Assembly (NCBI GenBank): GCA_027005175.1
Contig: JALTMC010000330.1
Coordinates: forward strand, 2,664-19,118
Source of the DNA: Myxococcales bacterium
GTDB taxonomy: Bacteria > Myxococcota_C > UBA6777
DNA length: 16,455 nt
Direction of reading: 5' to 3'
A program made the position numbers and the translations under genes. The notes below the pieces were generated by a model, which was not told the origin of the DNA, searched no databases, and saw only the letters and a list, made by a program, of their open reading frames with translations. This document shows positions 5,699-15,726 of the stretch, one piece after another; the first letter of the stretch is position 1, and every line of letters starts with the position of its first letter.

Positions 5699-5814
5699 CG
5701 ACTTCGTTGCGGTAGCTGAGAAGAGAGCGTCTTGGGTCTTTCAGGAAACAGCACAGCCGTCAGCATATGACTTCGTTGCGGTAGCTGAGAAGAGAGTGTC
5801 TTGGGATTTTCAGG
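5699..5814. repeat. Two copies of a 47-bp direct repeat (gacttcgttgcggtagctgagaagagag[c/t]gtcttggg...ttcagga), period about 69 bp. The second copy abuts or overlaps the aldolase stop codon.
   Basis: Direct reading, about 44/47 identity. The repeated PKTLSSQLPQRS in the 5416..5934 shadow ORF is the same DNA repeat translated. Confidence 0.75.
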
Positions 5815-6703
5815 AGTTTCCCTGAAAGATCTTCTTGACCTCATCAAGGACAAGTTCTTCGAGTCGTGTTGGGTCGATGGGGACAGAGGCTTCGGTCCCT
5901 GCTGCTTTTGGTGACGGAGGCTGTGTTGTGTCAACAGATTTGGTCTCTTGTTTCTGTGTTTTGGCTTGTTGGTGGAGTTCTTCTTTCCACTGTTGGCGTG
6001 CTTCCTTTTCTCGCAGAGCTTTTTCTTGGAGGGCTGCTATTTTCTCTTGTCGGTTTTGGGGTCCTAAGCCGATGGATGCACGTTTTTTGAGTAGAGTGTC
6101 ACGATGTTCTTGAGCTAGGGTCATTGGCTGCCCCATTTGCATGGCATAATATTCGATTTTGGCGAGATGCTCGACAAGCTCGAGGCGTAGCCATGCTTGT
6201 TCAAGGTCATCTCCAATGGCTAAGATCCCATTGCCTGTCATCATGATGACATCGGCGATTTGCAATCCATCATGGATCAGTTTGTCATTCTCGGGAGCGC
6301 CAGGCATTGCAAAAGGGGTGACAGGAATACAGTCACCAATGGATACGATAGCTTCAGGGAGTGCTGGATATATTGGCTGGTTGACAAGGCCTCGTGCGGT
6401 GACAAAGGGGGGGTGGGCGTGGACCACAGCGTTGGCATCGGGTCTTGCACGGTAGGCGGAGAGGTGGAGCTTGATCTCCGAGAAAGGTCTGCCGATCCCC
6501 TCGATCTTTTTGCCCTCCATATCGAGGGTGATGACCATCTCTGGCTTGATGGAAGCTTTGCTCTCGGAGGTTGGGGTGGCGAGCAGCACATCGTCGAGGC
6601 GAGCGGATATATTGCCATCGTGATTGGCGGTGAAACCTTTATGGTCTAGTTTTTGAGAGATCTCTGCAATCAGGTTGCTGAGATAACTTCGCCTTGAACC
6701 CAT
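5810..6703 (-). CDS. Class II aldolase/adducin-family enzyme (FucA-like: fuculose/rhamnulose-1-phosphate or 5-deoxyribulose-1-phosphate aldolase type). It has a C-terminal Lys/Glu/Gln-rich linker and a terminal amphipathic helix that resembles a BMC encapsulation peptide.
   Basis: YRARPDANAVVHAHPPFVTA matches the FucA metal-binding region (YQSRPDANAVVHNHAVHCTA). The catalytic domain is about 210 aa. A roughly 85-aa tail then follows, ending PIDPTRLEELVLDEVKKIFQGNS (amphipathic, EP-like). Confidence 0.85.
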   Translation of the reverse strand: MGSRRSYLSNLIAEISQKLDHKGFTANHDGNISARLDDVLLATPTSESKASIKPEMVITLDMEGKKIEGIGRPFSEIKLHLSAYRARPDANAVVHAHPPFVTARGLVNQPIYPALPEAIVSIGDCIPVTPFAMPGAPENDKLIHDGLQIADVIMMTGNGILAIGDDLEQAWLRLELVEHLAKIEYYAMQMGQPMTLAQEHRDTLLKKRASIGLGPQNRQEKIAALQEKALREKEARQQWKEELHQQAKTQKQETKSVDTTQPPSPKAAGTEASVPIDPTRLEELVLDEVKKIFQGNS

Positions 6704-7415: not shown

Positions 7416-8330
7416 TTAATATTTTCCTTTTGCGGCTTTTTTTCCAGTGACAATGGCGATACTCGCTGAAGCACCGATTCGATTGGCTCCAGCCTTTATC
7501 ATCTTTTCCGCGTCTTCTCGTGAACGAACACCGCCAGAAGCTTTGACTTCCATGTCACAACCTACCACTCTTCGCATCAGCTCGACATCTTCTACAGTGG
7601 CTCCACCTGAACCAAAACCGGTGGAGGTCTTTACAAAGGCTGCACCGGCTGTTTTGCTAAGTGTACAGGCAATGACTTTTTCTTCGTCTGTGAGACTTGA
7701 GTTTTCAAGGATGACCTTGACTTTGTAGGGTGCTGAAGCTTTGACAACTTCGCGAATGTCTTCATACACCAGTTGGTACTCTCTGGACTTGAGTGCACCG
7801 ATGTTGATAACCATGTCTATCTCTTGGGCACCGTTTCGGATCGCCTCTTTGGCCTCAAAAGCTTTGGCATGACTCGTTGATGCGCCCAATGGAAAGCCAA
7901 CCACCGCGATGGGTTTGACGCCAGAGCCTCGCAATTGTCGTGCGACCAGCGGGATATTGCTCGCGTTGACGCAAACGGTAGCAAACTGATAACGCTTGGC
8001 TTCGTCGCAGATATTTAACAACTCTTCTCGGGTAGCATCCGCCTTTAATAAGGTGTGGTCGATGTATTTGGCGAGAGTATGGTCGATCTTCTCTCCAAAT
8101 CCAGGCTTTGCGCCAATTCGTACAGCGCCGGAGTTGATAATATTGCCACAGGCATCTTTTTTGATTGTGGCACAATGACCACATCCATCGCAGTTATCCA
8201 TGGAGAGCAGACAGGGGGCATCTCCACAAGACCCACCAGCTTGCATGCCGGCTCCACCGGATTGCAAGCGCTCCACCACTTGCTGGGTGATCTTGCGGAC
8301 AATCTCATCAAGGTTGTTATTTTGACTCAT
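7416..8330 (-). CDS. deoC: Deoxyribose-phosphate aldolase with an N-terminal extension of roughly 75 aa. The extension is an EP-like amphipathic helix followed by a Gly-rich linker and a six-Cys cluster.
   Basis: DeoC core motifs: [42 protein letters not shown], and VKASGGVRS (Schiff-base Lys region). N-terminus: [16 protein letters not shown], then GGAGMQAGG, then C-x4-C-x6-C-x2-C-x2-C-x7-C. Confidence 0.85.
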
Positions 8331-8349
8331 GGCGAACCCTTATCTTTTG

Positions 8350-8622
8350 TTATTCTGCACAGAATACCTTGTCTACAATACCAACAATTACCGAGTGAAA
8401 TGGATCGTCTTGTGTGCCCAGGAGTTGACGGGCTGAGTTCCCTTCTCGTTGGACAAGGACAACATCACCTTCTCCTGCCTGAACAGAGTCACAGGCAAGA
8501 AATGATTGTCCACAATCGTTGCCTTTTTCGTCGATGGGGTGAACGATAAGAACCGTATGTCCCTCAAAGCAGGGATGCTTTTCTGAGGCAACCACATTTC
8601 CTTTAACTCTTCCCAAGATCAT
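8350..8622 (-). CDS. BMC-P vertex (pentamer) shell protein, EutN/PduN/CcmL family.
   Basis: 90 aa. MILGRVKGNVVAS N-terminus and overall pattern typical of Pfam EutN_CcmL. Its start overlaps the stop of the upstream BMC-P by 4 nt (ATGA). Confidence 0.8.
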   Translation of the reverse strand: MILGRVKGNVVASEKHPCFEGHTVLIVHPIDEKGNDCGQSFLACDSVQAGEGDVVLVQREGNSARQLLGTQDDPFHSVIVGIVDKVFCAE

Positions 8623-8938: not shown

Positions 8939-9496
8939 CTACCTCTGGAATACTTTTTCAAGAAATTCAGGATGGGGGGAAGGGATGATCTCATAATTGG
9001 CTAACATACCTTCTTTTTGTGCATAACGCCATGCTGCTTCCATCGATGCTTCAAGTTGGTGGAGTTCTCCGGTGATCACAAAGTAGCCTTTTCCTCCGAG
9101 TCCACTACCCAATTTGAGTTCTACGAGTTGAACAGGTGTTGTCTTGGCTGCTCGGTCAGCGGCAAAAACGCAAGAGCATACGGAGAAGGTTTCGACGATA
9201 CCGATAGCACCGAAGGTCTCAATCGCGGTGCTTCCTGCGATCGCCGATAGCACGCTGTGATGGAGTTGAGGGATGATAATGTCATGGACGAGCCCGTCTC
9301 CGGCTGCCACAACACCAGCCTTGTGAGATTCTTCCACATCCCCCACTTCACCACCAAAAAGAGTGATGTACTTTCCGGGAGAGATCGGGTGGGATTGGAG
9401 AATCCGTACGGGCGCCTTTTTGGCAATGGCATCGGTGGAAAAGATACCTTTTGCCACAGACTTGTATTCGATCATCCCGAGAGCGGGCTCCTGCAT
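8939..9496 (-). CDS. BMC-T shell protein, PduT-like (tandem canonical BMC domains). The Fe-S ligand Cys of PduT is replaced by Ser.
   Basis: ALGMIEYKSVAKG...SHPISPGKY aligns to PduT AIGILELTSIAKG...SKTICPGKF (C to S). The second domain is AIGIVETFSVCSCVFAADRA. I chose the start at the internal ATG (MQEPALGM), preceded by aggaaaagagga. The ORF-track start at 9535 adds 13 aa. Confidence 0.75.
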   Translation of the reverse strand: MQEPALGMIEYKSVAKGIFSTDAIAKKAPVRILQSHPISPGKYITLFGGEVGDVEESHKAGVVAAGDGLVHDIIIPQLHHSVLSAIAGSTAIETFGAIGIVETFSVCSCVFAADRAAKTTPVQLVELKLGSGLGGKGYFVITGELHQLEASMEAAWRYAQKEGMLANYEIIPSPHPEFLEKVFQR

Positions 9497-9507
9497 TCCT
9501 CTTTTCC

Positions 9508-10839
9508 TTATCGTCTGGTGCGAATCTCGATCCATGCGTCACAAATATCGCTAACATGACCTGCAATGGATGCATGAAAACACAACCCAAGTTGATCCAG
9601 TGGACTCTCTGCTATCCTATCACCCATTCGTACCCTTTCTCCCACTCGTACCTGGGGGATCACAGGTACACCAAAGCGTTTCTCAAGCGGTACTCGAACC
9701 AAGCCAACGTGTTTTGTCCCCTCGTAAGGGAGCTTTTGAAGATAGCGCTGAATATCCATCTTTTTGAGCAGCATGGGAAGGGATACCCTGGCATTTTCGT
9801 AACCGGAACGTACCTTTGGCTCTTCTTGTGTTTTGGGATAGTGAAGTCCTCTTTGCTCTAACTCATTCCGGGTCTCTGCAAAAAGCTGTCGGGGAGAGAG
9901 TTGCATCACATCACAGGCTATCAAGTCGCAGACACCGCACTGGCTGCACAAAAAGGAAGACATCAAGTGCTCTGTGTCTACCTTGTTGTAGTTGATGGCC
10001 CGCATCATTTGATGGGGAAAGATGTCGTGCCCTGCGAGGTAGCGTGGACACATGTCTGTGCATCGCATACACTGACTGCAAGCCGCCTTGGATTGTTTTA
10101 GCATCTGTGTGGTGCTTTTGCTTTTTATGCGAATGATACAGTGGTCTTGTGCCAAGACCGTGATCCCATTTGTTGTTTTGGTGATCCCAAGACTGTGGTT
10201 CTGAACCAACCCTCCTCGCAGTGGACCCCCATCCAAAATGGCTACAGGATGTTGTGTGGTGCCGCCTGCCATATCCAATAGATCACTGTAGGTTGTTCCT
10301 ATCGGTACTCTTACGATTTTGGGTTCCGCGACCTCTCCCACGATACTGACGAGCTTTTCTGTGACAGCCTTCCCTCCCATTGCCCGAGCCATCTGAGCCA
10401 ACGATACAACATCATTCACGACAATACCGATGTCTCTGGGGCTTCCTCCTTCAGGAACAACACGCTTTTTGATGTCGTAGGTGAGGTGGACTTCATCTCC
10501 GGTCGGATGGTGGTCTCTCAGCGGAAAGAGTGAAATGGAGCCATCAGAGGGGAGAGCCTGGTTCAGAGACTCGAGCAACTTCGGTTGTGCTCCTCGGGTT
10601 GCGATAATTCCTTCCCGGGCTCCTGTCGCCGTCATCGCGAGCTTCAAACCGTCCATGACGAGATCGGGTCTTTCTTCCATTAATACCGTGTCGGTGGCGA
10701 GGAGAGGTTCGGATTCACTGCCATTGGCAATGACTGTATCCGCTTTCGCCAAGAGCTTGCGATACGTTGGTTCTCCCCCATCTCCGGAATCCATAATCCC
10801 AGCCAGTCGAACAGCATTGATGATCGCATTTCGCTTCAT
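9508..10839 (-). CDS. PduS-like (RnfC/Nqo1-like) Fe-S flavoprotein. It has a divergent N-terminal nucleotide/flavin-binding motif.
   Basis: Two 4Fe-4S motifs: CSQCMRCTDMCP and CSQCGVCDLIAC. The N-terminal SGDGGEPTYRKL sits where the plus-strand paralog has GAGGGGFPAHVKL. SESEPLL sits where the paralog has AECEPLL. Confidence 0.8.
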   Translation of the reverse strand: MKRNAIINAVRLAGIMDSGDGGEPTYRKLLAKADTVIANGSESEPLLATDTVLMEERPDLVMDGLKLAMTATGAREGIIATRGAQPKLLESLNQALPSDGSISLFPLRDHHPTGDEVHLTYDIKKRVVPEGGSPRDIGIVVNDVVSLAQMARAMGGKAVTEKLVSIVGEVAEPKIVRVPIGTTYSDLLDMAGGTTQHPVAILDGGPLRGGLVQNHSLGITKTTNGITVLAQDHCIIRIKSKSTTQMLKQSKAACSQCMRCTDMCPRYLAGHDIFPHQMMRAINYNKVDTEHLMSSFLCSQCGVCDLIACDVMQLSPRQLFAETRNELEQRGLHYPKTQEEPKVRSGYENARVSLPMLLKKMDIQRYLQKLPYEGTKHVGLVRVPLEKRFGVPVIPQVRVGERVRMGDRIAESPLDQLGLCFHASIAGHVSDICDAWIEIRTRR

Positions 10840-10851
10840 AAGACCGATACT

Positions 10852-12348
10852 TTAGAGGACACCAAAGTATCCCTTGAGGGTACATCTTCGGATACGAGTA
10901 AATGTGCGGGCTGTGGTCATGCCTTCTCCTGTGGGAGAGGCGATGGTGAAGGATGTTGGCCCTTCACCTCCCAGACCCAAACCCGCCAGAGAGCCGCCGT
11001 TTTTGACAAACAAACTTGTGTTCATCTTGATGGCCATCTTGTGCATATTGTCGATATTTTTGGAGTGAATGCAGGCGGTGTGAAAGCAGCCTTGTTCCAG
11101 TGTGTATGCGATATCGATCGCCTCATCGATATCTCTGGCTTGTATCAGTGGAACAACGGGCAACATCAACTCTTGCACAGCAAAGGGGTGATCTGCGTCG
11201 GTTTGAGTAATGGCCAGCCGCTTGGAGGCATCCACTTCCATCCCAATCTCTCGCAAGATGACCTGAACATCCTTACCCACAAACCTCTTTTCAACATGCC
11301 CATGATCGTCCAGGATAAGGTTCTTCAAGCGTCTGGTTTGGAAAGGGCTCAACTCCACGGCCCCGTGTTTGAGCATGTATTTCTTGAGCGGAGCAAGAGC
11401 TTTTCTTGTGGCGATGATCTCCTTTTCGACCACACAGATAATATTGTTGTCTGTGCTTGCACTGGTCACGATGTCACGTGCGGCTTGTTCCAAATCGGCA
11501 GTCTCATCAACAACCACCGGAGGGTTCCCCGGTCCGGCAGCGATCACTCGTTTCCCCGACTGCATCGCAGCTCGCACAACAACAGGGCCGCCGGTGACGA
11601 CCAACAGTCGGATACCTCGGTGCTTCATCAATCGCTGTGCGCTTTGGATGGTGGGAGAGCGCAAGGTGGTGAAGAGGTTGGGGGGACCCCCCTCTGAGAT
11701 GACCGCTTTGTTCATGATGTTGATCGTAAAGAGGGATACTTTTCGGGACGAAGGGTGAGGGTGAAAGACCACACTGTTTCCACCTGCCAACATCCCAATA
11801 CCGTTGTTGATAATGGTCTCTGAGGGATTGGTGGTGGGGGTGATGCTGCCGAGAACACCGAAGGGACATCTCTCTTCGAGAGTGAGCCCGTCGTCTCCCA
11901 CAAAACTGTTGGCTTCAATGTCTTCAACACCAGGGGTCTTGAGAATAGCAAGGCGGTTTTTTACCAGCTTGTCTTCATACCGGCCAAGCCCCGTTTCCTC
12001 CACGGCCATTCGGGCCAGATCTTCAAGGTGCTCCATGCAGATCTCACGAACCGCTGCAACGATCCTTTTGCGTTGCTCTATAGAGATGCTCCGAAATTCT
12101 TCGAATGCCTTCTGTGCCGCTTCTACAGCAGTGTCAAGGTCGGGAAAACAGCCCAACTCTCCCACACCCGAGCCCCAGGCTCGTGGACCCGGTACAAATG
12201 TAGGGCGGGCAGGAGGCGAAGGGGCCAGTACGGGAACAGAAGTTCGAGGGAGTGCTTGGGTAGGGTTGGAAGGCTCGTGGGAATCGACTGCCAACTGCTC
12301 GACGACGCGGTCGACAATGGAGCGAATTTGATCGTCCGTCACTTTCAT
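10852..12348 (-). CDS. CoA-acylating aldehyde dehydrogenase (PduP/EutE family) with an N-terminal encapsulation peptide and Pro-rich linker.
   Basis: Aldehyde dehydrogenase superfamily core, about 450 aa. N-terminus MKVTDDQIRSIVDRVVEQLA (amphipathic EP), then the linker PSNPTQALPRTSVPVLAPSPPARPTFVPGP. I chose the ATG at 12348 (ggaaaggtgg RBS). The ORF track starts 4 codons earlier at GTG. Confidence 0.85.
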   Translation of the reverse strand: MKVTDDQIRSIVDRVVEQLAVDSHEPSNPTQALPRTSVPVLAPSPPARPTFVPGPRAWGSGVGELGCFPDLDTAVEAAQKAFEEFRSISIEQRKRIVAAVREICMEHLEDLARMAVEETGLGRYEDKLVKNRLAILKTPGVEDIEANSFVGDDGLTLEERCPFGVLGSITPTTNPSETIINNGIGMLAGGNSVVFHPHPSSRKVSLFTINIMNKAVISEGGPPNLFTTLRSPTIQSAQRLMKHRGIRLLVVTGGPVVVRAAMQSGKRVIAAGPGNPPVVVDETADLEQAARDIVTSASTDNNIICVVEKEIIATRKALAPLKKYMLKHGAVELSPFQTRRLKNLILDDHGHVEKRFVGKDVQVILREIGMEVDASKRLAITQTDADHPFAVQELMLPVVPLIQARDIDEAIDIAYTLEQGCFHTACIHSKNIDNMHKMAIKMNTSLFVKNGGSLAGLGLGGEGPTSFTIASPTGEGMTTARTFTRIRRCTLKGYFGVL

Positions 12349-12450
12349 CAGAAAAACCACCTTTCCCTTTGGGAAGTACTGGTTTTGCTGGCGACAAAAC
12401 CAGGAGAGGGGGTGCCATAGGCATACAGGAGAAGAGAATCTTCTTCCGAA

Positions 12451-13803: not shown

Positions 13804-15147
13804 ATGCCGCATTTCTCATCGTCTTTTTCGGCAAAAGATATCGTGGAGAAGGTCCGACAGGCAGGCATTGTCGGTGCGGGAGGTGGAGGCTTTCCTGCGC
13901 ATGTCAAGCTCGATGCAAGTGTAGACTTTTTTATTGCCAACGCTGCGGAGTGTGAGCCTTTGCTGTGCAAGGATCAGCAGCTTATGGAGCTGCATGCACA
14001 ACGCATGGTGCATGGACTTCGTCTTGGGATGAAAGCCACTGGGGCGTCTCGTGGCATCGTCGCGATCAAGAAGAAGTACAAAAGAGCGATAGCCCAACTC
14101 GAAAAGTACGTGAGTGGGAACATCGACTTCTACCTCTACGACAACTTCTACCCTGCTGGAGATGAGTTTATCATCGTATATGATGTGTTGGGACGCTTGA
14201 TTCCACCAGGAGGGATACCTCTTGATGTGGGTTGTGTTGTCAACAATGTCGAAACACTGATCAATATCTCTTGTGCCATGGAGGATGTTCCTGTGACACA
14301 TTCCGCGCTGACGATCGCGGGTGCTGTTCATGAGCCTCTCTCTGTTGTGGCACCTCTTGGAACTTCTCTGCGAGAGCTTCTCGCTTTGGCGGGAGGGGCG
14401 ACTGTGGAGGACCCGGTTTTTCTCGATGGTGGTGCGATGATGGGGAAAGCTCTGGATGATCTGGATGCTCCTGTGACCAAGACATCAGCAGGTTATATCG
14501 TGATCCCCAGAGAACACCATCTCTATCGTCGCAAAACACGAAGCGATGAGGCCAATGTTCACATCTCTCGCTCTGCTTGTGACCAGTGTAGCTATTGTAC
14601 GGAACTGTGTCCTCGTTATCTTCTTGGTTATGCTATCGAACCACATGCGGTGATGCGTTCGGTTGGTTTTGAGGGGGACAAAGAAGCTCATTGGGCAAGA
14701 CTTGGCCTGTTGTGTTGTGAGTGCGGTATCTGCGACTTGTATGCCTGCCCTGAAGACCTGCCTGTGAAAGACATGCAGATCCGTTCCAAAGCCATCTGGA
14801 ATGCACGTGGATGGCCCAAAGAGCACCTCATTGGCTTGGACAGAGTTCATCCCATGCGAGACAGTCGTCGTGTGCCTATCCCACGATTGATTCAACGCTT
14901 AGGACTGACAGACTGGGATGTTACCGCTCCAATGACAACCAAGGTTCTGGAGCCGATGAATGTACAGTTGATGCTGAAACAACACGCTGGTGCTCCTGCG
15001 GTACCGATTGTTGGGGAGGGGGAGGTTGTGAAAGTCGGCCAACTTGTCGCGGCGATTCCCGATGGACAACTCGGTGCCAACATTCATGCAAGTATCGATG
15101 GATATGTAGCCCGTATCGATGACAACAGTATCTGGTTGACGAGGTAA
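13804..15147 (+). CDS. PduS-like (RnfC/Nqo1-like) Fe-S flavoprotein with canonical motifs.
   Basis: GIVGAGGGGFPAHVKL glycine-rich FMN/NADH motif. AAECEPLL. Two Fe-S motifs: CDQCSYCTELCP and CCECGICDLYACP. 447 aa. Confidence 0.85.
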   Translation: MPHFSSSFSAKDIVEKVRQAGIVGAGGGGFPAHVKLDASVDFFIANAAECEPLLCKDQQLMELHAQRMVHGLRLGMKATGASRGIVAIKKKYKRAIAQLEKYVSGNIDFYLYDNFYPAGDEFIIVYDVLGRLIPPGGIPLDVGCVVNNVETLINISCAMEDVPVTHSALTIAGAVHEPLSVVAPLGTSLRELLALAGGATVEDPVFLDGGAMMGKALDDLDAPVTKTSAGYIVIPREHHLYRRKTRSDEANVHISRSACDQCSYCTELCPRYLLGYAIEPHAVMRSVGFEGDKEAHWARLGLLCCECGICDLYACPEDLPVKDMQIRSKAIWNARGWPKEHLIGLDRVHPMRDSRRVPIPRLIQRLGLTDWDVTAPMTTKVLEPMNVQLMLKQHAGAPAVPIVGEGEVVKVGQLVAAIPDGQLGANIHASIDGYVARIDDNSIWLTR

Positions 15148-15150
15148 TTT

Positions 15151-15726
15151 ATGAGCTGGAGAAGTTTCGATAAACCCACTCCCCCTGCTATCGGTTTTCT
15201 GGAGCTTTCAAGTATTGCTCGTGGCATTGAAGCTACAGATGCGATGCTCAAAGCTGCCGATGTTCTCCTGGTGCTTGCCCGAACCATCTGCTCGGGAAAA
15301 TACATGGTTTTGGTCGCTGGTGAGGTTCAGGACATCGAAGCCAGCGTCGCCGCTGGCGTTGCAATCGGGAAGGAATGTACCATCGATCAATTTATCATTC
15401 CCAATGTTCATCCCGCTGTATTCCCTGCGGTGTCTTCCTCTGGTATGTTCCGCGGTAGCGGTGCTATCGGTATTATTGAGTCCTTCTCGGTAGCCTCTTT
15501 AATTGAAGCCATCGATCAGATCGCAAAAGCGGCACTGGTCGAGGTGGTGGAGTGTCGTCTTGCGATGGCTCTAGGTGGAAAAGCATATGTTGTCTTTACG
15601 GGCGATGTTGATGCCGTTCAATACTCCATTGATGCAGGCGCTGAGGTTGTTAAAAAGCGCGGTCTTTTGGTCAACCAGGTCGTCATTCCCAACCCTCGAA
15701 AAGAGTTGTTTGACACCCTGATCTAG
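15151..15726 (+). CDS. BMC-T shell protein, PduT-like, retaining the 4Fe-4S ligand Cys.
   Basis: AIGFLELSSIARGIEATDAMLKAADVLLVLARTICSGKY aligns to PduT ...KTICPGKF. The second BMC domain is AIGIIESFSVASLIEAIDQIAKAA. Its ATG is 3 nt after the PduS-like stop, with a gaggt RBS. Confidence 0.8.
   Translation: MSWRSFDKPTPPAIGFLELSSIARGIEATDAMLKAADVLLVLARTICSGKYMVLVAGEVQDIEASVAAGVAIGKECTIDQFIIPNVHPAVFPAVSSSGMFRGSGAIGIIESFSVASLIEAIDQIAKAALVEVVECRLAMALGGKAYVVFTGDVDAVQYSIDAGAEVVKKRGLLVNQVVIPNPRKELFDTLI

Follow-up and report, generated by a model that had tools for sequence, protein, structure and literature searches.

Why does an aldolase destined for a bacterial microcompartment (BMC) carry a cluster of cysteines between its targeting helix and its catalytic barrel? 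We address this question for the deoxyribose-phosphate aldolase (DERA; DeoC) encoded in a 16,455-nucleotide (nt) stretch of DNA from a Myxococcales bacterium (assembly GCA_027005175.1, contig JALTMC010000330.1, forward-strand positions 2,664 to 19,118), which is referred to here as the window and from whose first letter all coordinates are counted. An earlier note had described the N-terminus of this protein as an encapsulation peptide (EP), a Gly-rich linker, and a module of six cysteines that could bind a metal or iron-sulfur (Fe-S) centre, form disulfides, or act as a redox-sensitive tether to the shell. We found that four of the six cysteines form a conserved knot, which probably binds either an Fe-S cluster or zinc, and that the segment following the knot resembles the end of the DERA barrel itself.

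The extension and its EP helix are already known for this enzyme family. All DERAs of sugar-phosphate-utilising (SPU) microcompartments bear an N-terminal extension of ~70 amino acids (aa) that is absent from non-BMC DERAs, and AlphaFold2 (AF2) models it as an amphipathic helix of ~30 residues and two low-confidence beta strands (PMC11585597, Dwyer et al. 2024). The main text of that paper contains no occurrence of "iron-sulfur," "Fe-S," "ferredoxin," or "flavoprotein"; the word "cysteine" appears there solely in connection with the RPI active site and with a mass-spectrometry setting, leaving the Cys motif undiscussed, and we found in it no discussion of a similarity to DERA's own beta8 or of flavoprotein fusions. 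Other BMC literature that we searched gave no description of such a Cys or metal site, and full-text searches combining DERA with iron-sulfur or cysteine-rich in a BMC context returned nothing relevant. Thus, a ligand-like set of cysteines with a relocatable fourth member, its ferredoxin-like register, the beta8-like duplicate, and the flavoprotein fusions appear to be undescribed.

Four of the six cysteines form a conserved knot

The cysteines of the extension lie at residues 35, 40, 47, 50, 53, and 61 (C-x4-C-x6-C-x2-C-x2-C-x7-C); six cysteines within a 27-residue window arose in 525 of 200,000 shuffles of the protein's own composition. The cluster thus exceeds chance, for which its conservation among homologs is a stronger argument than the shuffles. 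To what extent they are conserved was assessed in a search of 5.8 billion proteins for close homologs, and the counts given here refer to the best 120 (63-100% identity, coverage 97-100%); three of these 120, at 87-88% coverage, are shorter, apparently because of downstream start calls. C47, C50, G51, and C53 are invariant in all 120, as are G68, A69, R71, and G77. C40 is kept in 105, while 14 others read C-x2-C-x2-C-x2-C, i.e. they have a cysteine at position 44 instead. Because the loss of C40 is in most cases accompanied by a cysteine at position 44, four thiols are maintained by ligand relocation. The C35 column, by contrast, is a gap in 71 of the 120 homologs, and cysteine is not among its four commonest residues; the C61 column, normally V or I, has cysteine in two. 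C35 and C61 are, therefore, lineage-specific, and the six-cysteine module proposed earlier, although its cysteines are all present, was rejected in favor of a knot of C40, C47, C50, and C53. The conserved unit reads C-x6(or x2)-C-x2-C-G-x-C, then x3-[K/R]-P-[E/D]-A-[V/I]-x-N-I-x-x-S-G-A-x-R-I-G-x-x-x-G, in which position 57 is K in 77 and R in 39 of the 120 homologs, and position 58 is Pro in 107 but Lys in the DERA studied here. The interval 8106-8330 assigned to the module in the earlier note does correspond to residues 1-75, but the conserved part reaches to approximately residue 80 (nt 8091).

Beyond the close homologs, an exhaustive profile search with the extension only against 1.84 billion cluster representatives gave 116 matches. 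Six of them, eukaryotic arrays of C2H2 zinc fingers, are repeat-driven and spurious and were discarded. The motif CxxC[GAS]xC is carried by 81 of the representative matches, 78 of which have an upstream cysteine within 16 residues (spacing 2-11, mode 6). In a survey of reference genomes that covered 78 loci from many phyla, the knot had four cysteines in 48 loci, five or six in 8, three in 3, two in 13, one in 3, and none in 3; at least four were thus present in 56 of the 78 loci. The spacing differs between lineages: C-x7-9-C-x2-C-x2-C in Myxococcota, C-x2-C-x4-C-x3-C in Gemmatimonadota, CC-x4-C-x4-C in Bacteroidota and Ignavibacteria, C-x3-C-x4-C-x3-C in SPU6 Anaerolineales, and C-x2-C-x3-C-x3-C-x3-CP-x2-C in other Anaerolineae. 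Conserved in all 78 loci are the EP helix and an ...AV-x-NI...GA-x-R[IVL]... segment. Altogether, the cluster is not peculiar to this gene but is conserved in the extension throughout the BMC-type DERA clade. Non-conserved Cys positions in orthologs, which the earlier note had named as a refutation, are thus not seen for the core cysteines. The invariance of three cysteines and the glycine in the 120 homologs and in distant fusion proteins, together with the relocation of the fourth cysteine when C40 is lost, indicate that the four-cysteine set is likely under purifying selection.

The knot and a beta8-like segment accompany the barrel

The residues that follow the knot appear to be related to the barrel. 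In a profile search of the PDB, the extension matched the C-termini of solved DERAs, e.g. mIdaGAtRIGaSaGva. When extension residues 34-84 were compared with the barrel using hhalign, residues 55-80 paired with residues 268-293 (P 2e-5, probability 77%); the score of 32.2 compares with 10.5 +/- 2.0 (maximum 15.8) for column shuffles, none of 150 of which reached it. These comparisons point to residues 55-80 being a helix-strand that diverged from a copy of the last helix and beta8 of DERA itself, presumably after a partial internal duplication. AF2 models the helix-strand with low confidence (predicted local distance difference test [pLDDT] <50 for residues 68-78), which would be compatible with folding that depends on a partner or cofactor.

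In 22 of the representative matches, proteins of 349-516 aa, the knot is internal and lies directly before DeoC, with all four cysteines and the glycine invariant. One of these long proteins is RpiB-knot-DERA, the known SPU3 chimera. Nine match the Pfam family PF02441 Flavoprotein (best E 2.7e-7), and in the PDB a profile of the extra domain found flavoprotein decarboxylase, UbiX, and EpiD (E 8e-4 to 4e-3). The consensus of the long proteins begins with an EP-like helix, LIExITREVL. Because the knot is kept when the EP is replaced or separated by another domain, it belongs with the barrel and is not a mere linker. As far as the sequences tell, the EP can be separated as a module from the knot and helix-strand, which travel with the barrel. 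In RPI-DERA chimeras the "linker" between the domains has been recognized as a structural element of DERA (PMC11585597). That the neighbor domain is flavoprotein-like hints mildly at redox chemistry. Since domains of the HFCD family also serve as oligomerisation scaffolds, however, the fusion is weak evidence of a redox function.

Proteins composed of an EP-like helix, an HFCD/PF02441 domain, the Cys knot, and DERA are 430-516 aa long and comprise P0130, P0177, and about seven others. Of four corresponding loci, at least three (L018, L019, and L026) are BMC loci with a separate RpiB, whereas the fourth (L023) yielded neither a BMC nor an RpiB gene within the locus.

We also considered whether the knot generally serves as an electron-transfer partner of PduS/MNdh. 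The four cysteines are kept in SPU6-type Anaerolineales loci that have RpiB, aldehyde dehydrogenase (AldDH), and shell genes but lack MNdh, and in satellite DERAs of Myxococcota and Bacteroidota with no BMC gene within 10 kb; therefore, this candidate was rejected. Conversely, the BMC-embedded DERAs of loci L037 and L079 lack all knot cysteines, and the knot is thus not required for encapsulation. Judging from these loci, the knot is neither needed for encapsulation nor tied to MNdh.

In Myxococcota, Bacteroidota, and Ignavibacteria there are also DERAs that have the EP helix and the beta8-like segment without any BMC gene being detected in the 10 kb to each side (L011-L017, L024-L030, L035, L039, and others). 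In the Ignavibacteria type, the knot has degenerated to C-x4-C-K-G-W-E or a single cysteine.

Do the cysteines bind anything? They could be a remnant, e.g. of an ancestral ferredoxin-like segment, so that only the EP helix and the beta8-like part are functional. The universal conservation of precisely these two parts in the 78 loci would fit this idea, as would the complete loss of the cysteines in the BMC-embedded DERAs of L037, L047, and L079, the one or two cysteines left in Ignavibacteria, and the lack of a fold in the knot region of the AF2 model. A remnant, however, would not be expected to keep three cysteines and a glycine invariant in 120 sequences of 63-100% identity and in distant fusions, or to relocate the fourth cysteine upon loss of C40, and we consider this explanation improbable.

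A putative metal site in a proposed neck domain

We propose that C-[IVT]-x-C-G-x-C-[VA]-x-x-[K/R]-P-x-A-V may represent the [4Fe-4S] signature CxxCGxCxxxCPxxAI with the fourth cysteine moved upstream. Among 44 isolated extensions scanned against Pfam at E <= 10, the most recurrent families were Fer4 (12), Fer4_2 (6), Fer4_6 (4), and Fer4_4 (3). Using hhalign, the knot was placed in register on a genuine Fer4 motif, SCVGCGLCSEVCPRGVL, of the polyferredoxin encoded in the window (P 9.6e-4); in its pairing with SCVGCGLCSEVCP of the polyferredoxin, K57 falls on the fourth ligand cysteine and position 58 on the proline. The homolog P0214 has the full signature, CLSCELCVEKCP, and several lineages have C-x3-C-P at that position; the DERA studied here reads C47-x2-C50-x2-C53-x3-K57-K58 and, thus, does not itself have the complete CxxCxxCxxxCP. 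A helix of the AF2 model starts at C53, as in ferredoxin motifs. A comparison with the ferredoxin motif of MNdh was not significant (P 0.1).

We suggest the following model for the extension. The amphipathic helix (residues 5-24) would recruit DERA into the cargo core or onto the shell and would be followed by a variable, flexible linker (residues 25-39). Next, the compact knot of C40, C47, C50, and C53 would ligate a metal centre, which in the SPU5 lineage would most likely be a ferredoxin-type Fe-S cluster. The helix-strand (residues 54-80), as a diverged duplicate of the last helix and beta8, would follow the knot, and the metal would staple the two into a small neck domain that connects the targeting helix to the barrel. 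This neck would be accessory, contributing to structure, assembly, or possibly redox or oxygen sensing, and not to catalysis. That the knot binds a metal of some kind is, in our view, probable; that it binds an Fe-S cluster is a tentative assignment, plausible but short of probable. Our analysis shows the anatomy of the extension, its conservation, the internal duplication, the in-register alignment with a ferredoxin motif, and the independence from MNdh; that a metal is bound, which one it is, and what the neck does are inferred, and the metal cannot be named from sequence alone.

Several observations weigh against this model. All Fer4 matches of the 44 isolated extensions are under the Pfam thresholds (best E 0.016), the extension of the present DERA has no Fer4 match in Pfam at E <= 10, and the hhalign probability of the knot against Fer4 is only 22%. 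The structure prediction called for in the earlier note yielded a modelled helix at residues 5-24 but left the knot and helix-strand at low confidence (pLDDT 45-65, in the full-length protein and in the extension alone). Except for DERA termini, the PDB profile search of the extension found only the eS26 knuckle and weak ferredoxin-type matches, with E 0.026 for this zinc knuckle versus 0.5 or worse for the ferredoxin-type chains, and C2H2 zinc-finger arrays come up as false positives of the extension profile. For shielding a cubane, a loop of 14 residues is small, and aldol cleavage has no need for a redox cofactor. Since the knot is kept without PduS/MNdh, no electron-transfer partner is implied. 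Myxococcota/Haliangium and Gemmatimonadota are largely aerobic and, hence, less suited to a labile, exposed cluster, and both keep the knot. Finally, across the 78 reference-genome loci the spacing of the cysteines is lineage-specific, and 19 loci, including the BMC-embedded, Cys-free Anaerolineales DERAs of L037 and L079, have zero to two knot cysteines, which argues that the knot is dispensable.

Part of this evidence favors a different metal. The four cysteines could bind one structural Zn(II), forming a zinc knuckle that rigidifies the neck without a redox role. Apart from DERAs, what the extension profile matches best in the PDB, at a level short of significance, is the Zn-binding knuckle of ribosomal protein eS26, CTNCARCVPKDKAI, and the zinc-finger arrays were among the weak matches; lineage-variable spacing and repeated loss of cysteines are reminiscent of C+/C- structural zinc sites; the knot is kept in the aerobic lineages and in loci without an Fe-S partner; and DERA is not a redox enzyme. 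Moreover, the C-x2-C-x2-C-x7-C spacing of C47, C50, C53, and C61 is the structural-zinc spacing of horse liver alcohol dehydrogenase (Cys97/100/103/111), indicating that CxxCxxC can bind Zn; however, C61, which completes this pattern, is a cysteine in only two of the 120 homologs. Also against a zinc site, the knot matches ferredoxin in register at the invariant glycine behind the second cysteine, at the hydrophobic residue next to the first, and in its [K/R]-P-x-A-V tail, some homologs have the full CxxCxxCxxxCP, several lineages have five to six cysteines, which is beyond the need of one Zn, and the AF2 model does not contain a confident knuckle. We regard a zinc site as plausible and only somewhat less likely than an Fe-S cluster.

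Alternatively, the cysteines might be redox-active thiols forming an intra- or intermolecular disulfide switch that cross-links or condenses cargo inside the shell, in analogy to the redox-regulated CcmM in beta-carboxysomes. In favor of such a switch are the clustering of conserved cysteines in a flexible, low-pLDDT region beside the targeting helix and a spacing that varies while their number is kept, which disulfide pairs would tolerate. Yet, an invariant CxxCGxC with a relocatable fourth cysteine is the signature of a ligand set and not of disulfide pairs, and the syntenic loci have no conserved thiol-disulfide oxidoreductase. Also, many hosts, for example Levilinea saccharolytica (L038) and the Anaerolineae, live as strict anaerobes, and their cytoplasm, like the lumen of their metabolosomes, should be reducing. 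Such a switch or redox tether seems quite improbable.

Returning to the Fe-S cluster, we speculate that a genuine cluster, which would make BMC-type DERA the first aldolase cargo known to carry one, might be functional and not just structural: it could form between both subunits of the DERA dimer from two ferredoxin half-motifs or act as an oxygen or redox sensor. In the sensor variant, the cluster might control folding of the beta8-like neck and, thereby, cargo condensation and encapsulation. With a functional cluster, the EP-flavoprotein-knot-DERA fusions would represent a built-in flavin/Fe-S pair. We consider a functional cluster of this type unlikely.

The reading frame and its start codon

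The DERA open reading frame (ORF) is complete, with 304 aa plus a stop, and its ATG at 8330 is the sound start (Table 1). This conclusion follows from the AAGGG 6 nt upstream, the close EutN gene, whose stop at 8350-8352 leaves 19 nt to the ATG, and the conservation of residues 1-85 in 120 homologs. Were the true start at Met29 or Met44, the Cys cluster would never be made; the earlier note had named a start downstream of the cluster as its possible undoing and had listed Met44 as the only internal Met, overlooking Met29. In-frame Met codons at residues 29 and 44 would allow such an annotation artefact, and some database homologs (P0095, P0096, and P0120) have shorter annotated N-termini. However, residues 1-85 are kept at the protein level in the 120 homologs and across phyla, the Shine-Dalgarno-like site and the 19-nt distance to the upstream gene fit the ATG at 8330, and Met44 sits within the invariant motif. 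Short annotations of SPU DERAs are known to be start-site errors, the extension often being missed in databases because start sites are called too far downstream (PMC11585597). The protein-level conservation and the Shine-Dalgarno-like site, thus, led us to reject a downstream start codon, and we regard an artefact as extremely improbable.

The claim that the Cys cluster lies outside DeoC proper was borne out. The Pfam family DeoC (PF01791) covers residues 86-287 (E 3.3e-18; 66.6 bits versus a cutoff of 23.8), no Pfam family matched in residues 1-85 at default thresholds, and both the Pfam domain and solved DERA structures begin ~10 residues before IDHTLLK; canonical DeoC lacks the cluster. 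The AF2 model of the barrel has a pLDDT >90 over most of its length. D172, K234, and K263 are invariant columns in a 63-sequence family alignment. The active-site residues of E. coli DERA are D102, K167, and K201 (PMC11585597), and by motif position, as opposed to direct alignment, we map D172, K234, and K263 as their likely counterparts. The protein is identical to P0001 in public data and is also present in the metagenome-assembled genome GCA_015485625.1.

Table 1. Positions of the DERA gene, its segments, and other genes of the window discussed in the text
Feature	Coordinates	Strand	Basis
BMC-type deoxyribose-phosphate aldolase (DERA/DeoC)	7416..8330	-	ORF list, translation, Pfam DeoC E 3.3e-18
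Shine-Dalgarno-like AAGGG	8337..8341	-	6 nt 5' of ATG, direct reading
Amphipathic encapsulation-peptide helix, residues 5-24	8259..8318	-	AF2, conservation, hydrophobic moment, PMC11585597
Variable Gly-rich linker, residues 25-39, including C35 (8226-8228)	8214..8258	-	Homolog variation, AF2
Four-Cys knot, residues 40-53: C40, C47, C50, G51, C53	8172..8213	-	Homolog conservation
Helix and strand-like segment, residues 54-80, including C61 (8148-8150)	8091..8171	-	hhalign versus barrel
Class I aldolase TIM barrel, residues 86-304	7419..8075	-	Pfam, AF2, invariant columns
Polyferredoxin-like membrane protein, 603 aa	17..1828	-	
Pyridine-nucleotide-disulfide oxidoreductase, 428 aa	1993..3279	-	
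Cpn10/GroES-like ORF, 123 aa	4083..4454	-	
Class II aldolase	5810..6703	-	
BMC-T by PduS/MNdh, main operon	8939..9535	-	
AldDH	10852..12360	-	
Second PduS/MNdh-like gene	13804..15147	+	
Second BMC-T	15151..15726	+	
ORF after second BMC-T, 221 aa	15749..16414	+	

The predicted encapsulation helix and its linker

Residues 5-24 have the form of an EP, i.e. a terminal, ~15-20-residue amphipathic helix followed by a poorly conserved linker, and are predicted to target DERA to the microcompartment. AF2 models them as a helix (pLDDT ~74 in the full-length protein, 73-90 in the extension alone). The hydrophobic moment of the helix is 0.52, ranking 11 of 289 among the 16-mers, and V18 and L22 are invariant and I14 nearly so in the family alignments. 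The operon encodes further EP-like amphipathic helices, at the N-terminus of AldDH (DDQIRSIVDRVVEQL) and the C-terminus of the class II aldolase (LEELVLDEVKKIF). Together with the published prediction for this family (PMC11585597), these findings uphold the earlier assignment of residues 7-22 to an EP-type helix. The Gly-rich linker was also correctly described; its length and sequence differ among homologs, and residues 28-37 have a pLDDT <50.

The AldDH N-terminus (MKVTDDQIRSIVDRVVEQL) and the DERA helix have the pattern [DE]-x-I-x-x-I-x-x-x-V-V-E-x-L in common, and this shared pattern suggests that the two enzymes may have a common shell or core binding mode.

The locus encodes an SPU5-type microcompartment

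The minus-strand operon begins with BMC-H, EutN, an acylating AldDH with an EP-like N-terminus, a PduS/MNdh-like flavo-Fe-S protein, and BMC-T, and continues with EutN, EutN, DeoC, a CsoS1D-like BMC-T, a class II aldolase with an EP-like C-terminus, and triosephosphate isomerase. Thus, the window has shell genes for BMC-H, three EutN/BMC-P, BMC-T, and a CsoS1D-like BMC-T alongside AldDH, with the CsoS1D_N/BMC gene adjoining DeoC, and a second PduS-like gene and BMC-T pair is divergently transcribed. The operon already has genes for Fe-S proteins, namely a polyferredoxin and two PduS/MNdh homologs, which counts in favor of an Fe-S cluster in the knot. Around the homologs P0091 and P0045, the gene order is the same. 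SPU5 loci are characterized by a missing RPI, a C-terminal EP on their class II aldolase, the presence of a PduS homolog, and a BMC-T(dp) that resembles CsoS1D (PMC11585597; for SPU microcompartments, see also PMC8217296). Because no LacAB_rpiB match was found among the 19 ORFs scanned in the 16.5-kb window, a lack of RPI that extends to the syntenic loci, and the window has the C-terminal-EP class II aldolase, PduS homologs, and CsoS1D-like BMC-T, we assign the locus to the SPU5 type of sugar-phosphate microcompartments. DERA itself is of the SPU type, as seen from the shell genes and acylating AldDH in its locus and from its helix-bearing N-terminal extension of ~70 residues.

The C-terminal tail of the class II aldolase, ~110 residues long, is charged and of low complexity and ends in the EP-like helix, in agreement with the C-terminal EP reported for SPU5 aldolases. 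The BMC-T by PduS/MNdh in the main operon has the pore HPISPGKY, with Ser in place of the Fe-S-ligating Cys, and this Ser is seen in both public copies of the contig. The syntenic BMC-T in five other SPU5-type loci (L003-L007) has HP[IV]CPGKY, and CP(G/S)K is reported to be universally conserved in MNdh-adjacent BMC-T (PMC11626177). The BMC-T of the divergent second pair retains the pore Cys (TICSGKY, with Ser replacing Pro) and may make up for its Cys-less counterpart in the main operon.

Downstream of the operon lie genes for a multi-pass membrane protein with Fer4_5 and 4Fe-4S dicluster motifs (a NapH-like polyferredoxin) and a flavin adenine dinucleotide (FAD) pyridine-nucleotide-disulfide oxidoreductase; these two could provide an external sink for electrons exported by MNdh and BMC-T. 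The Cpn10/GroES-like ORF directly follows the triosephosphate isomerase gene and is present in the public contig L001. The 221-aa ORF right after the second BMC-T has a hydrophobic N-terminus and a Lys-rich C-terminus and did not match Pfam.

Implications for a widespread microcompartment type

SPU microcompartments rank with the most widespread BMC types. Studies of their signature enzyme have so far been confined to forms from which the extension was deleted: full-length DERA from SPU6 (Chloroflexi) was insoluble in E. coli, and deleting the extension gave a soluble, active dimer (PMC11585597). This insolubility fits an unfilled metal site and EP-driven aggregation equally well. If the knot binds a metal, there would be a second possible reason, besides EP aggregation, for the insolubility, anaerobic or metal-supplemented expression of the native cargo would be suggested, and a metal-dependent element would join the rules of cargo packaging. 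If, on the other hand, the knot is merely a zinc staple or a remnant, our findings would amount to a modest refinement of a known annotation. In addition, the beta8-like duplicate and the fusions to RpiB and flavoproteins support that what has been called the EP extension is a composite of separable modules, which matters for its use as an encapsulation tag in BMC engineering.

Comparison with known systems

The closest known system is the extension of SPU DERAs (PMC11585597), which belongs to the same family and the same type of locus as the one described here and, at ~70-85 residues, has a helix followed by a region of low AF2 confidence. According to that paper, catalysis does not need the extension, which makes the enzyme insoluble in E. 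coli. While the whole extension was treated as an EP and "two beta strands," our analysis adds the Cys knot and the beta8-like copy.

The ferredoxin motif (Pfam Fer4, PF00037) resembles the knot in the CxxCGxC core, the hydrophobic residue after the first cysteine, the Pro at +5 after the third cysteine, and x-A-[VI]. It differs in that the fourth cysteine is K/R in the DERA lineage, a cysteine 2-11 residues upstream being present instead, and in that the DERA knot is a single half-motif with neither a second motif nor a predicted ferredoxin fold. Endonuclease III and MutY carry a structural [4Fe-4S] cluster in a C-x6-C-x2-C-x5-C loop and illustrate that such a cluster can be stable in aerobes in a non-redox enzyme. 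Their first spacings, C-x6-C-x2-C, are identical to those of the DERA knot; however, the last spacing is x5 versus x2 in DERA, the loop is C-terminal whereas the knot is near the N-terminus, and no sequence similarity was detected. The eS26 knuckle and the structural-zinc lobe of medium-chain alcohol dehydrogenases share with the knot four cysteines in ~15-25 residues, including CxxCxxC, as well as evolutionarily labile ligands and, presumably, a structural, non-catalytic role; homology to these zinc sites is not established, C61 is not conserved, and some DERA lineages have five to six cysteines.

Lastly, PduS/MNdh and the PduT-type BMC-T pore cluster (PMC11626177) are encoded in the same operon as DERA and, like the putative site in the knot, would place Cys-ligated clusters inside a BMC. 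PduS/MNdh and BMC-T form a defined electron path from NADH to the shell, whereas the DERA knot occurs equally in loci without MNdh.

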